A DNA stretch of 43,025 bases from a virus (Duplodnaviria > Caudoviricetes), in the IMG/VR virus record IMGVR_UViG_3300031953_000038, positions 1 through 43,025 of that record; one strand, written 5' to 3'. The notes beneath the pieces were generated by a model. The model saw only the letters and a list, made by a program, of their open reading frames with translations. It was not told where the DNA came from and did not search any database. Positions 22,690 through 25,763 of this stretch are shown piece after piece. Within the stretch, counting starts at the first letter, position 1. Each line of letters begins with the position of its first letter. The translations under genes were made by a program, and so were the position numbers.

Positions 22690-22715
22690 GTGTCCGAGGG
22701 GGGACTTGAACCCCC
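22690..22715 (-). other. attP core = 3' end of an actinobacterial tRNA-Leu (probably GAG)
   Basis: Reverse complement GGGGGTTCAAGTCCCCCCTCGGACAC is a T-arm plus acceptor strand; lies 140 bp upstream of int; no 5' tRNA half present. Confidence 0.85.
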
Positions 22716-22852: not shown

Positions 22853-24067
22853 ATGGCATCCGTAAGAATCCGCGTCGCCACAGACGGCAGCGAGACGTAC
22901 CAGTTGCGCTTCCGGCGCGACGGCAAGCAGGAGTCCAAGACGTTCACCACCCTGCGCGCCGCCGACAAAATGGCCGCACTCATGGATCGCGTTGGAGTCG
23001 AGCGCGCCCTTGACGTGATCGCCGAACGCGACGGCCGCAATGACGAGACCCCCACACTGGGCGAATGGTGCGAGCATCACATCGCCACTCTCACCAAGGC
23101 GTCGACCGGCACGCGCGCAAGATATCGGCGCATCCTCCTGAACGACATGACCACCATGAGCGACCTGCCCCTCGACTCCATCACCCGCGACATGGTGGCG
23201 CGCTGGGTGCTCGCCATGTCCGACGCCGGATCGTCCGGCAAGACCATCCGCAACAAACACGGATTCCTCGCGGGCGCAATGAAGCACGCCGTGGAAGAAG
23301 GCCTGATCCTGCGCACCCCCTGCGTCAAGCGTGGACTCCCAGACGGCACTAGTGGGCGCATGGTGTTCCTCACCCCTGACGAGTTCGCGATCCTGCTCGC
23401 ACACATACGCCCCAGTGAACGCGGCCTGGTCACCACGCTGGTAGGCACCGGACTGCGGTGGGGCGAGGCAACCGCACTTCAGGCCGGGGACTGGGATCGC
23501 TCACGCCGAATGCTCACCGTCTCACGCGCATGGAAAGAGTCCGCGTCCGGCGTGGAGCTCGGTGCGCCTAAGACCAAGCGGTCGCTGCGCACCATCTACA
23601 TTGACGGCGAGGTGGCAGACATTCTCGACGCTGGCACCAATGGCGCAGAGCCTGGCGCGTTCGTGTTCACCTCGCCCACCGGCAAGCCCTGGCGCGGCGC
23701 GGGACACTTCCACGAGTTCGTGTGGCAACCCGCCGTCGCCGCTGCCAACGGCCAGGTCTATGAATCGGCGCGCACGAGATCCAGGGCAAAGGGCTACGAC
23801 CCCACAGCCGGGCGCCCCTGGCTCGACCCAGCGCCCAAAGAGTTGCGACTAGGTAAGCGTCCACGTGTTCACGATCTCAGACATTCGGCGGCATCGTGGG
23901 CCGTGCGCGAAGGTGTCCCCCTCATCTCCGTGCAGGACATGCTCGGGCACGAATCCATCAAGACCACCATCGACCGCTATAGCCATCTCGAACCCAAGCA
24001 GGCGATGGCTGCGGGAATCGGCATGGCGAACGCGCTCAGGTCATCGCTTCCGCAGATCGAGGGCTAG
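22853..24067 (+). CDS. int: Tyrosine integrase
   Basis: TGLRWGEA, PKT, HDLRH, LGHESI.TT..RY catalytic residues. Confidence 0.97.
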   Translation: MASVRIRVATDGSETYQLRFRRDGKQESKTFTTLRAADKMAALMDRVGVERALDVIAERDGRNDETPTLGEWCEHHIATLTKASTGTRARYRRILLNDMTTMSDLPLDSITRDMVARWVLAMSDAGSSGKTIRNKHGFLAGAMKHAVEEGLILRTPCVKRGLPDGTSGRMVFLTPDEFAILLAHIRPSERGLVTTLVGTGLRWGEATALQAGDWDRSRRMLTVSRAWKESASGVELGAPKTKRSLRTIYIDGEVADILDAGTNGAEPGAFVFTSPTGKPWRGAGHFHEFVWQPAVAAANGQVYESARTRSRAKGYDPTAGRPWLDPAPKELRLGKRPRVHDLRHSAASWAVREGVPLISVQDMLGHESIKTTIDRYSHLEPKQAMAAGIGMANALRSSLPQIEG

Positions 24068-24474
24068 GCCGTGCACCACTCATCCACCACGGCAAAGATG
24101 AGCACCTCACGCGCGAAGTCCTCACGCCTGAGTTCGACCAGGCGCCGGGTGACCCCGAGCTCACGGGCCAGCGCGCCAGGATGGGTGCCGCATAGATCCT
24201 CAGCCACCGCGTAGGCATCGGCCCCAATGAGCAACCGCGCAGCGTACTGGTCCGCCTGGCGTTCATCGTGAGCCACGTTGTGGTCGCGTGACCAGTCGTG
24301 GCCGTGATGCCAGTGCCCCATCTCGTGAGCAAGCGTGACACGCTGCCTCAGATCCGTACGGCCATGGTTGACATAGACGACGCCCGACGAATGGACTTGG
24401 CCGTGGAACTTACCGAGATCGCAGAAGACGACCCTCAGTCCGAGCGCCTCAGCGCGCCCAATGAGTAAATCCAT
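24064..24474 (-). CDS. ImmA/IrrE-family metalloprotease (anti-repressor)
   Basis: R.TLAHEMGH...E..AD..AARLLI and C-terminal HTH (LARELGVT); adjacent to the repressor. Confidence 0.92.
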   Translation of the reverse strand: MDLLIGRAEALGLRVVFCDLGKFHGQVHSSGVVYVNHGRTDLRQRVTLAHEMGHWHHGHDWSRDHNVAHDERQADQYAARLLIGADAYAVAEDLCGTHPGALARELGVTRRLVELRREDFAREVLIFAVVDEWCTA

Positions 24475-24480
24475 GCCTCA

Positions 24481-24502
24481 GTTCTATCGTCGCCCACCGA
24501 CA
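24481..24502 (-). promoter_or_regulatory. PafBC / RecA-NDp-type DNA-damage promoter for the ImmA gene
   Basis: Minus strand reads TGTCGG-tgggcgacga(10)-TAGAAC-N6-ATG, against consensus TGTCGG-N10-TANNNT (last base deviates). Confidence 0.65.
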
Positions 24503-24505
24503 CGG

Positions 24506-24853
24506 TTACACGCTCTGGCCGTCCTCTGCCGCCGCGTCGTTACCATCCGCGCTCGTCTCGTCGGCGCGGGGGTCGCTGGCGGCGAGGGCGTACCCATCAC
24601 TACTCACTAATCGCAGTTCGGCAGCGGCAAAGACTGCCGACGCAGTGGTGCCGAACACCTTCGCGATGTGGTCAATTTCACCCGGTGATGCTGGCGGGGT
24701 GTCGTGTCGGGTGATTTTTCCCAGTCGATTGTGGGACATGCCAGCGGCTTTCGCCGCTCCGCGTAGTGATAGTGGGGACGCGTCGAGCAGTTCCTTCAGC
24801 ACGTCACTGAGGGCGATGTCGAGTGCGCTGTGGTCTTTCGGGTGCTTAGCCAT
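24506..24853 (-). CDS. Immunity repressor (XRE HTH), 115 aa
   Basis: SLRGAAKAAGMSHNRLGKI HTH; divergent from cro; upstream of immA. Confidence 0.88.
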   Translation of the reverse strand: MAKHPKDHSALDIALSDVLKELLDASPLSLRGAAKAAGMSHNRLGKITRHDTPPASPGEIDHIAKVFGTTASAVFAAAELRLVSSDGYALAASDPRADETSADGNDAAAEDGQSV

Positions 24854-24859
24854 GCCTCC

Positions 24860-24956
24860 AATGTACCCATTTACAACCAATTTGGCTACGTGACTTGACA
24901 AGTGGATCTATTTGGGTCCACTATCGTCTTATGAACACGGAACCAAATGAGTCCAG
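24860..24956. promoter_or_regulatory. Divergent repressor/cro promoters with three operator-like sites
   Basis: Leftward TAGCCA-17-TACATT; rightward TTGACA(24895)-18-CACTAT. Imperfect palindrome GTGGATCTATTTGGGTCCAC (24902-24921) with related copies at 24861-24880 and 24937-24956. Confidence 0.7.
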
Positions 24957-25233
24957 CGGGCTCGACTCTTTCGTCTCAGACGAAATCAAGGCCCGCATCG
25001 CAGTTACGCGTGGTGTAACTGTGACGAGTGCCGCGGAGGCACTCGTCGTAAGGAGAAAGTACCTCTCGGCTCGCGTAAATGGATCTGTCCCATTCGCGTC
25101 GACGCTTCTTGACCGGATCGCCCGCCTGCTTGGCACGACCGCGTCGGAAGTGGTGGCCGCAGCCGAGAGAAGGAGAAGGCTCGACGCCGGGGAGGGGCAA
25201 GAAACCCCCGGCGCAAGGCGGGTGGCCTCATGA
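24931..25233 (+). CDS. Cro-like HTH protein
   Basis: TVTSAAEAL.VRRKYLSARVNG.VPF HTH; first rightward early gene, apparently leaderless. Confidence 0.8.
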   Translation: MNTEPNESSGLDSFVSDEIKARIAVTRGVTVTSAAEALVVRRKYLSARVNGSVPFASTLLDRIARLLGTTASEVVAAAERRRRLDAGEGQETPGARRVAS

Positions 25234-25457
25234 CCGCCCCCGTATTCCACGGCGCCGCTTGGTTCGCTGAGCAGATCGGCGAGAAAGAGGACTGGGTGCG
25301 CAGACACTCGCGCTCGCTCCCCCGTCACCGCGTCGGCAGGTTCCTGCGCTTCACCGAGGCGAACGTGCAGGAGTACGTCGAGCAGACCCGTGTCGCGCCC
25401 GAGCCGGAGATCGCGCTGACCGCTCGGTCACGCAAGGCGAACGGCGGCAAGCGATGA
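25230..25457 (+). CDS. xis: Excisionase-like HTH protein
   Basis: LP.HRVGR.LRFT...V..Y motif (HTH_17/MerR-like). Confidence 0.75.
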   Translation: MTAPVFHGAAWFAEQIGEKEDWVRRHSRSLPRHRVGRFLRFTEANVQEYVEQTRVAPEPEIALTARSRKANGGKR

Positions 25458-25720
25458 CCACCACCGTGCGCATCCACAATGCCGATGCGGGCATGAGTGA
25501 CCTCGACCTCATCACCGCACTAGCCCAGGCTTTGCGCACCGCACAACAGGAGGGCAACGCCGCTCGCTCACGGGTGTTGCTGTCCACGTTGCAACAGGAA
25601 CTCCACGTGCTCGGACTTGGTGACCCCGCAGGCGACACGTGCCCGGCGCTGATCCGGTCGAACGGTCGCCTCCAGCCCGAGTGGCTGGAAGAGATCGGCG
25701 TTGAGGTGGAGGCATCATGA
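25454..25720 (+). CDS. Hypothetical protein
   Basis: ATGA-coupled ORF in the early operon. Confidence 0.65.
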   Translation: MTTTVRIHNADAGMSDLDLITALAQALRTAQQEGNAARSRVLLSTLQQELHVLGLGDPAGDTCPALIRSNGRLQPEWLEEIGVEVEAS

Positions 25721-25763
25721 GCGGCGACACCTGGCTGGAAGAGATCGGCGTTGAGGTGGAGGC
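25682..25763 (+). repeat. Perfect 32-bp direct repeat (25682-25713 / 25732-25763)
   Basis: TGGCTGGAAGAGATCGGCGTTGAGGTGGAGGC occurs twice, 50 bp apart. Confidence 0.95.

Follow-up and report, generated by a model that had tools for sequence, protein, structure and literature searches.

Background

Self-cleaving repressors of the LexA/CI type carry a C-terminal S24 peptidase domain with an Ala-Gly site. Many actinophage repressors have no self-cleaving domain, and to our knowledge the inactivation of such repressors on induction has been little studied.

Pairs of an XRE-type repressor and an HExxH peptidase, to which the locus reported here is similar, are represented by ImmR/ImmA of ICEBs1, DdrO/IrrE, CapH/CapP and Crh/Rir (PMC12828697, PMC6868357, PMC13228613). 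Cuts by M78 peptidases have been placed at F95|M96 in ImmR and at L106|R107 in DdrO, the latter inactivating the protein by breaking dimerisation, whereas Rir leaves Crh uncut (PMC12828697, PMC6868357); unlike in the scheme proposed below, a Clp degron is not invoked in the sections of these reports drawn on here. In Listeria, MpaR cuts the repressor of phage phi10403S between A74 and H75 of TIAAHID, as mapped by LC-MS/MS (Argov et al. 2019, PMC6872733). In that protein and in the CI-like repressor of the monocin, as in ours, an M78 peptidase is paired with an HTH repressor, an xx-A-A site follows the HTH domain and acidic residues follow the site, but the Listeria repressors run on into EExxxxILAYIE (PMC6872733), whereas here the tail is without a confident fold and YALAA occupies the non-prime side. 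The main text of the MpaR papers contains neither 'clp' nor 'degrad', and that of PMC6872733 proposes no degron role.

In LexA and RseA (both VAA), mycobacterial anti-sigma factors and the CI protein of S. aureus phage phi11, a cut bares an Ala-rich C-terminus and ClpX(P) clears the DNA-binding or cytosolic fragment (PMC10584840, PMC12273997, bioRxiv 10.1101/491043). Systems of the LexA/RseA type rely on RecA-stimulated self-cleavage or intramembrane proteolysis, whereas here a separate phage zinc protease would remove a short acidic cap only. Internal ssrA degrons combined with TEV or HIV-2 protease, in which a masked tag is freed by a site-specific protease, have been engineered in M. smegmatis (PMC8138137); those modules are synthetic, and that of the present phage would be their natural counterpart. 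Integration-dependent immunity (BPs; clusters G, N and P) also joins an actinophage repressor, an ssrA-like LAA stability signal, a tyrosine integrase and a tRNA attB, but in that system the default state is an exposed tag, which recombination at an attP within the gene removes (PMC9262239).

Here we describe a repressor-immA locus in which the repressor carries the sequence DGYALAA ahead of its C-terminus. On balance we judge it rather probable that DGYALAA is an ImmA cut site, cleaved after AA, so that the tail would be lost, the YALAA-ended fragment destroyed by host Clp and repression lifted. The cut and its register would follow the precedent of Listeria MpaR, and recognition by ClpX or ClpC1 that of ssrA tags, LexA, RseA and the mycobacterial anti-sigma factors; we further infer that degradation, rather than loss of the tail, is what would inactivate the repressor.

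The immunity locus

The window, by which we mean the whole stretch of 43,025 nucleotides analysed, is a 43-kb record of a temperate phage, and the features of its immunity region are collected in Table 1.

Table 1. Features of the repressor-immA region and its surroundings, in window coordinates
Feature	Position	Strand	Remarks
Likely attP core, 26 bp	22690..22715		identical to the 3' part of the Demequina flava (G001) tRNA-Leu(GAG) gene
Tyrosine integrase	22853..24067	plus	runs towards immA; C-terminus ...PQIEG, not ssrA-like
ImmA-type M78 zinc metallopeptidase, 136 aa, peptidase domain only	24064..24474	minus	PF06114, E 6.8e-12
PafBC-like box TGTCGG-N10-TAGAAC	24481..24502	minus	ends 6 nt before the immA ATG; intergenic
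Repressor, XRE-type HTH, 115 aa	24506..24853	minus	ATG at 24853, stop at 24506; S24 self-cleavage domain undetected
Acidic tail, 23 aa	24509..24577	minus	putative cap, likely also a protease docking segment; 7 D/E, 1 R
DGYALAA, residues 86-92	24578..24598	minus	predicted to serve both as latent ssrA-like degron and as non-prime half of the ImmA site; register from MpaR TIAA|HID
DNA-binding domain, five helices, residues 10-85	24599..24826	minus	AlphaFold2 model
Repressor-cro intergenic region	24854..24930		presumed promoters and operators
Cro-like divergent HTH protein	24931..25233	plus	ends ...ARRVAS, exposed small-residue C-terminus
Excisionase-like HTH_17 gene	25230..25457	plus	domain match

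GGAGGC stands immediately 5' of the repressor ATG, and immA lies downstream on the same strand after a gap of 31 nt. The C-terminal part of the translated repressor reads ...ELRLVSSDGYALAA-SDPRADETSADGNDAAAEDGQSV. Its sole Pfam match is to HTH_31 (E 2.4e-5, below the cut-off), and LexA-type self-cleavage is ruled out, since HTH_31 was all that could be found in these 115 residues and an S24 domain is absent. An AlphaFold2 model based on an alignment of 44 sequences (mean pLDDT 86.9) has a pLDDT of ~98 in the blocks spanning residues 11-80 and of 57-68 in those from residue 91 on, with no folded domain C-terminal of residue 85. Foldseek searches with this model gave weak matches to ClgR and other XRE domains (best E 1.5e-3) and nothing at E <= 0.001; tblastn of the repressor against annotated phages yielded zero matches, and residues 76-115 used as the sole query retrieved nothing beyond the protein itself. 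An assembly error as the source of the motif was rejected, because over the motif and the promoter-like box the contigs of three other runs (X3, X4 and X6) agree letter for letter, the contig of run X7 not spanning them.

ImmA is a single-domain enzyme of the ICEBs1 type, without GAF, and among proteins of solved structure IrrE and CapP are nearest to it by sequence. The motif HEMGH occupies residues 50-54 and, like E71, is invariant or nearly so across 40 homologues, in which H50, E51, H54 and E71 are invariant. Its gene content and catalytic motif place the locus in the COG2856/M78-XRE switch family, cleavage of the repressor being a prediction. A complex prediction of ImmA, Zn and repressor (score 0.02, mark 0.32) was counted neither for nor against any reading.

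The best named match of ImmA is from D. flava (61%), which together with the tRNA-Leu(GAG) match points to a Demequina-like host; clpX was present in 5 of the 5 host-clade genomes checked, as was a PafC HTH gene. The likely attP core lies ~1.8 kb away from the repressor gene, which bears out an earlier distinction from integration-dependent immunity: attP is elsewhere, the genes for repressor and integrase converge, and their ends, GQSV and QIEG, are not ssrA-like, so that this mode of immunity is ruled out. The arrangement is in fact the opposite one, with a hidden tag, a convergent and untagged integrase and an excisionase-like gene present.

Candidate operators between the repressor and cro are the inverted repeats ACTTG-A-CAAGT (24893-24903) and GTGGA-N10-TCCAC (24902-24921, by eye). 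A 32-bp direct repeat was also seen by eye at 25682-25713 and 25732-25763; in both copies the final letters are GGAGGC, a short way ahead of an ATG.

Position of the predicted cut

The earlier note had described DGYALAA followed by an acidic tail at the end of the repressor, and both the coordinates and the translation confirm this. YALAA (24578-24592) occurs a single time in the six frames of the whole window, in which LAA is found 63 times. Since the encoded protein continues for another 23 residues, up to its end GQSV, YALAA has no free C-terminal position. The helices of the model stop at residue 85, and thus the motif begins exactly where the folded domain ends and a cut there would strip the low-confidence tail alone. 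The five residues satisfy the E. coli ClpXP consensus [LFYW][LAR]LAA and resemble the DFALAA and DYALAA of host-clade tags. In the two nearest homologues (59-63% identical), Y88, L90, A91, A92, S93, D94 and P95 are kept and the flanks have diverged.

The repressor shares with the MpaR substrates a conserved AA 3' of the HTH region that is followed by acidic residues (YALAA-SD); the full consensus TIAAHID-x-EE-x-ILAYIE, with its conserved C-terminal segment, is not found, the tail SDPRADETSADGNDAAAEDGQSV being low-confidence coil. If the actinobacterial site is used in the way that MpaR uses its own, the cut is predicted to fall at A92|S93, between bases 24578 and 24577, leaving a fragment that ends in DGYALAA. 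The enzyme that supplies this register is very remote, as the ImmA profile matches gp35 of Listeria phage A118 with a probability of 2.6% (E 0.018). The corresponding site in the A118 repressor reads LLAAHID. Among Firmicute repressors encoded beside an HExxH-type gene, an AA site was recognized in four of seven and none in the other three (the seven were picked by eye among 40 of 427 records). In the A118 gp35 protein (L113:3182-3673, annotated as a metallo-protease) EEAMH replaces HExxH, and EExxH is also found in two Staphylococcus phage homologues.

Conservation among ImmA-linked repressors

We gathered 112 loci that encode an ImmA relative, and the upstream ORF was chosen by coding bias, never by motif (one pick was corrected by its annotation). 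An ORF was obtained at 102 loci; 73 of these are HTH-type by Pfam (E <= 0.05) and 8 clustered with them, the rest being 6 proteins without Pfam match or HTH cluster, 9 other genes and 6 non-genes, which were dropped. The resulting 81 HTH proteins represent 60 distinct tails, that of this phage among them.

An AA or VA pair lies 10-27 residues from the C-terminus in 59 of the 60 ImmA-linked HTH proteins versus 192 of 555 background ORFs, LAA is present in 24/60 versus 20/555, and [YF]xLAA, at 10-27 residues from the end, in 20/60 versus 0/555 (1000 shuffles: mean 0.05, maximum 2), although these counts overstate independence because the relatives share ancestry. A combined site rule, drawn up after the data had been seen, is satisfied by 57/60 ImmA-linked HTH proteins and 27/555 background ORFs, and since 13 of 28 acidic-ended background ORFs also pass, it is partly an acid-tail rule. 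Among other genes in the repressor position the rule holds for one of eight non-HTH proteins and for all six proteins without a hit. With a relaxed rule a site can be assigned in 77 of 77 repressor-ImmA pairs, with enzymes down to 21% identical, the pick at L032 being probably spurious. At L032 and L100 the repressor apparently stops before any acidic tail, ~220 nt before immA, and may be truncated.

The non-prime side of the site is fixed for Ala, whereas P1' is highly variable (S, D, M, L, R, Q); in the tail, D at P2' and often E-x-E-A-Q-Q-x-P are conserved. The pattern [YF]xL[AV][AS] is found at 27 of the 77 sites and with enzymes sharing as little as 24% identity; its distribution over the ImmA tree is clustered (10 changes versus 22.4 when shuffled), as co-evolution with the protease predicts. 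The conservation of Y-x-LAA in ImmA-linked repressors that had been anticipated is thus seen in part: (A/V)A is near-universal and is accompanied by an acidic tail, but full likeness to ssrA is limited to one-third, and because only (A/V)A and the acidic tail are invariant, protease specificity alone could account for the motif. In a distant ImmA clade (L124, L126, L127, L130, L132 and L133) the sites read D-Y/H-x-L-V-A or L-V-S and the tails are different.

These data bear on whether a cut at A92|S93 takes place at all. The motif and tail could instead be a docking segment for ImmA or another antirepressor, inactivation occurring by binding or through a cut elsewhere, so that YALAA would never become terminal. 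Inactivation of the binding type is reported for Rir/Crh, the M78 sites vary by family (F|M, L|R), and the homology to the Listeria-type enzyme is remote. We nevertheless regard this as decidedly unlikely, as the 40 homologues all keep HExxH and E71, the third ligand, and as a fixed AA with a variable P1' agrees with AA|H, the single phage site of this type that has been mapped.

A PafBC-like box upstream of immA

A PafBC-type promoter had been proposed for immA, and a box-like sequence is indeed present. The PafBC (RecA-NDp) consensus is tGTCgg(N10)tA(N3)T, with capitals marking conserved positions (PMC8635444). In the box of this phage GTC and A are present and the conserved final T is replaced by C; moreover, the window contains six matches with one mismatch versus 8.25 expected by chance, so that the promoter is only partly borne out. 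The position of the box would suit a leaderless immA transcript. A stricter pattern, with C permitted at the lower-case t (a choice made after the data had been seen), occurs upstream of immA in 29 of 60 cases, never on the antisense strand and once inside immA. A capitals-only pattern gives 34 matches upstream, 22 antisense and 5 inside immA, its poor separation from the antisense strand probably being due to Asp-rich tails, which give GTC on the opposite strand. An increase of ImmA upon DNA damage by way of PafBC is plausible for the family, with weak support in the present phage.

In 8 of the 20 repressors with [YF]xLAA a box is embedded in the repressor gene itself, in a fixed register, 29 nt upstream of the predicted cut (L010, L011, L023, L052, L072, L075, L077 and L085). 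The codons for V/M/L-S then form the -26 element and those for Y-T-L the -10 element, and Thr at P4 is found in 8/8 carriers with the embedded box versus 1/12 without. One might suppose from this that the motif is a by-product, either of a constraint at the DNA level, the immA promoter lying over the repressor gene's 3' end, or of an Ala-rich, high-GC composition, with which the frequency of LAA in the six frames of the window (63 occurrences) would agree. Yet the other 12 of the 20 carriers, this phage included, keep [YF]xLAA without an embedded box, and the promoter consequently does not explain the motif; the box leaves Y, A and A unfixed, and background proteins have [FY]xLAA at 4 of their 1847 internal AA sites. 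We consider a by-product origin very improbable in general and largely excluded for this phage, in which an overlapping promoter as the cause was rejected because the box is intergenic.

Recognition of the new end by Clp

In ten host-clade genomes the tmRNA tags end in DFALAA (eight) or DYALAA (two). When 5-mers were screened in E. coli, [LFYW][LAR]LAA proved the best for ClpXP, AA being necessary and insufficient, and P, D, S, H and Q were disfavoured at P3 (PMC10862746). One of these five residues stands at P3 in 13 of the 77 sites of the family (counted by eye). In mycobacteria, VAA ends exposed by a protease are read by ClpX, and VDD lowers the affinity a hundredfold (bioRxiv 10.1101/491043); an SsrA-tagged protein is unfolded by mycobacterial ClpC1 as well (PMC6274998), and for this reason ClpC1P could be the reader as well as ClpXP. 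The site does not track the tag of the host, since tmRNA tags of Corynebacterium end in DYALAA whereas the sites in their phage repressors are PYVA, PHAA, PIAA and DAVA. The last helix is separated from the predicted new end by seven residues only, perhaps a short handle.

In S. aureus a cleaved CI fragment goes on repressing until ClpX acts, and prophage induction requires ClpX (PMC10584840). A comparable need may exist here, because nothing is folded past the site in the model and a cut would leave the entire HTH domain to be removed; removal of a dimerisation domain in the manner of DdrO has, with helices only up to residue 85, no evident target. As we envisage it, the acidic tail would cap the full-length repressor in a lysogen, where the protein would likely be stable and hold off cro and the early genes. 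Damage would cause ImmA to rise or to become active, the trigger being uncertain in this phage; ImmA would bind the tail and cut after A92, and ClpX or ClpC1 would then take hold of the YALAA-ended fragment, leading to its destruction.

None of the 60 intact repressors ends in [AVS][AS], and in 45 of them the last residue is P or D. Cro-like partners were found with an HMM from which the 12 C-terminal residues had been omitted, and they end in [AV]A in 32 of 62 cases versus 47 of 520 in the background, and in [AVS][AS] in 51 of 62 versus 78 of 520. Without the 15 hand-picked seeds the figures for the Cro-like ends are 20/48 and 37/48, respectively. At these 62 loci the Cro-like ends resemble exposed Clp signals, that of this phage being RRVAS at 25216-25233. 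Their contrast with the repressor ends favours the view that the predicted cut would expose a degron. Ala-rich ends of this kind were seen in none of seven Firmicute Cro-like proteins.

Exchange of the site and tail between repressors

In two more distant proteins the site plus tail is 60-69% identical to that of this repressor, versus 20-23% for the heads: P0218 shares 20 of 29 residues in the site and tail and 18 of 77 in the head, and P0239 18 of 30 and 16 of 81, respectively. This is a pattern pointing to swapping of the HTH head in front of a cassette of tail and immA. It also modifies the view of the tail as an acidic disordered cap. Acidic and of low model confidence it is, but a tail that is conserved and exchanged between unrelated HTH heads would be more than a passive cap, and fits a role in protease docking.

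The exchange is equally relevant to the reading in which DGYALAA is a cut site and nothing more. ImmA may simply have pockets that favour small side chains at P1-P2 and hydrophobic side chains at P3 and P5, and loss of the tail might itself inactivate the repressor, through oligomerisation, cooperativity or partner binding, with Clp as incidental clean-up. The T[IV]AAH site of the Listeria and Staphylococcus phages is followed by a conserved stretch, which might form a dimer helix, DdrO is inactivated through lost dimerisation, the present tail has conserved residues (the D at P2' and the Gln-containing motif given above), sites of one type fall together on the ImmA tree, and some of the sites would make poor degrons. 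It is difficult, however, to square an oligomerisation role specific to the head with a site-plus-tail cassette that occurs on unrelated heads, and the tail is strongly acidic with no fold predicted past residue 85. In addition, D-Y-x-L-[AV]-A recurs with ImmA enzymes that are only 24% identical and with differing tails, and the Cro ends suggest that Ala-rich C-termini are in use by these phages. We regard a site without degron function as a serious, if improbable, competitor to the scheme in which cleavage exposes a signal for Clp.

Extending that scheme, we put forward, tentatively and with somewhat less than even confidence, that many actinobacterial prophages (Micrococcales, Corynebacterium, Rhodococcus) share a portable 'capped degron' cassette, composed of an ssrA-mimic cut site, an acidic cap and immA, which can be swapped onto unrelated HTH heads. 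ImmA would only uncap, Clp would inactivate, and Cro would bear its signal permanently exposed, so that both arms of the switch would be tuned by a single host protease; in many members the codons would also spell the DNA-damage promoter of immA. A link between a cut by ImmA or another M78 peptidase and a Clp degron was not found in the titles and abstract openings of the literature searched, subscription papers and supplements being outside the scope of that search. Each component has a precedent; what appears to be new is their combination and how it is spread among actinobacterial prophages, together with the contrast with Cro and the dual-coded promoter.

The proposal makes a prediction at the level of residues, a cut after AA with YALAA as the new end, and would explain how cutting a floppy tail could turn off an intact HTH domain. 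It would tie M78 antirepressors to Clp proteolysis, in which case the mapped IAA|H site of Listeria may be a latent degron as well. In practical terms, the tail motif is a quick marker for a prophage repressor and its protease partner, and the cassette would be a compact natural module for protease-gated degradation in actinobacteria.

Searches that started from the repressor instead of ImmA gave a similar picture. A profile that took in the tail collected 143 distant homologues, among which 76 satisfy the site rule, 17 have [YF]xLAA, 7 have YALAA or FALAA, and none has a terminal AA or VA. In a scan of viral contigs led by the head, 13 loci were found, with immA adjoining in 11, one at a contig edge and one without; the sites are LAA, LVA, LVS or similar. 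The repressor homologue without an adjacent immA (L129:3712-4276) has a short tail only and is joined in tandem by another HTH gene. When 78 genomes around G001 were searched with a profile, L135 was the one clear orthologue, immA lying beside it, and the remaining matches were Cro-like or unrelated HTH proteins.

Two deviations from the common arrangement were encountered among the homologues. One protein of 150 aa (P0108) consists of a close homologue of the repressor head fused to the C-terminal part of ImmA, without the site and without HExxH, and is probably a deletion fusion or an assembly chimera. Five others (P0110, P0123, P0127, P0129 and P0169) form a second tail class that is basic past an AA-like site (e.g. 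AARRGRRK...), suggesting another protease subfamily.
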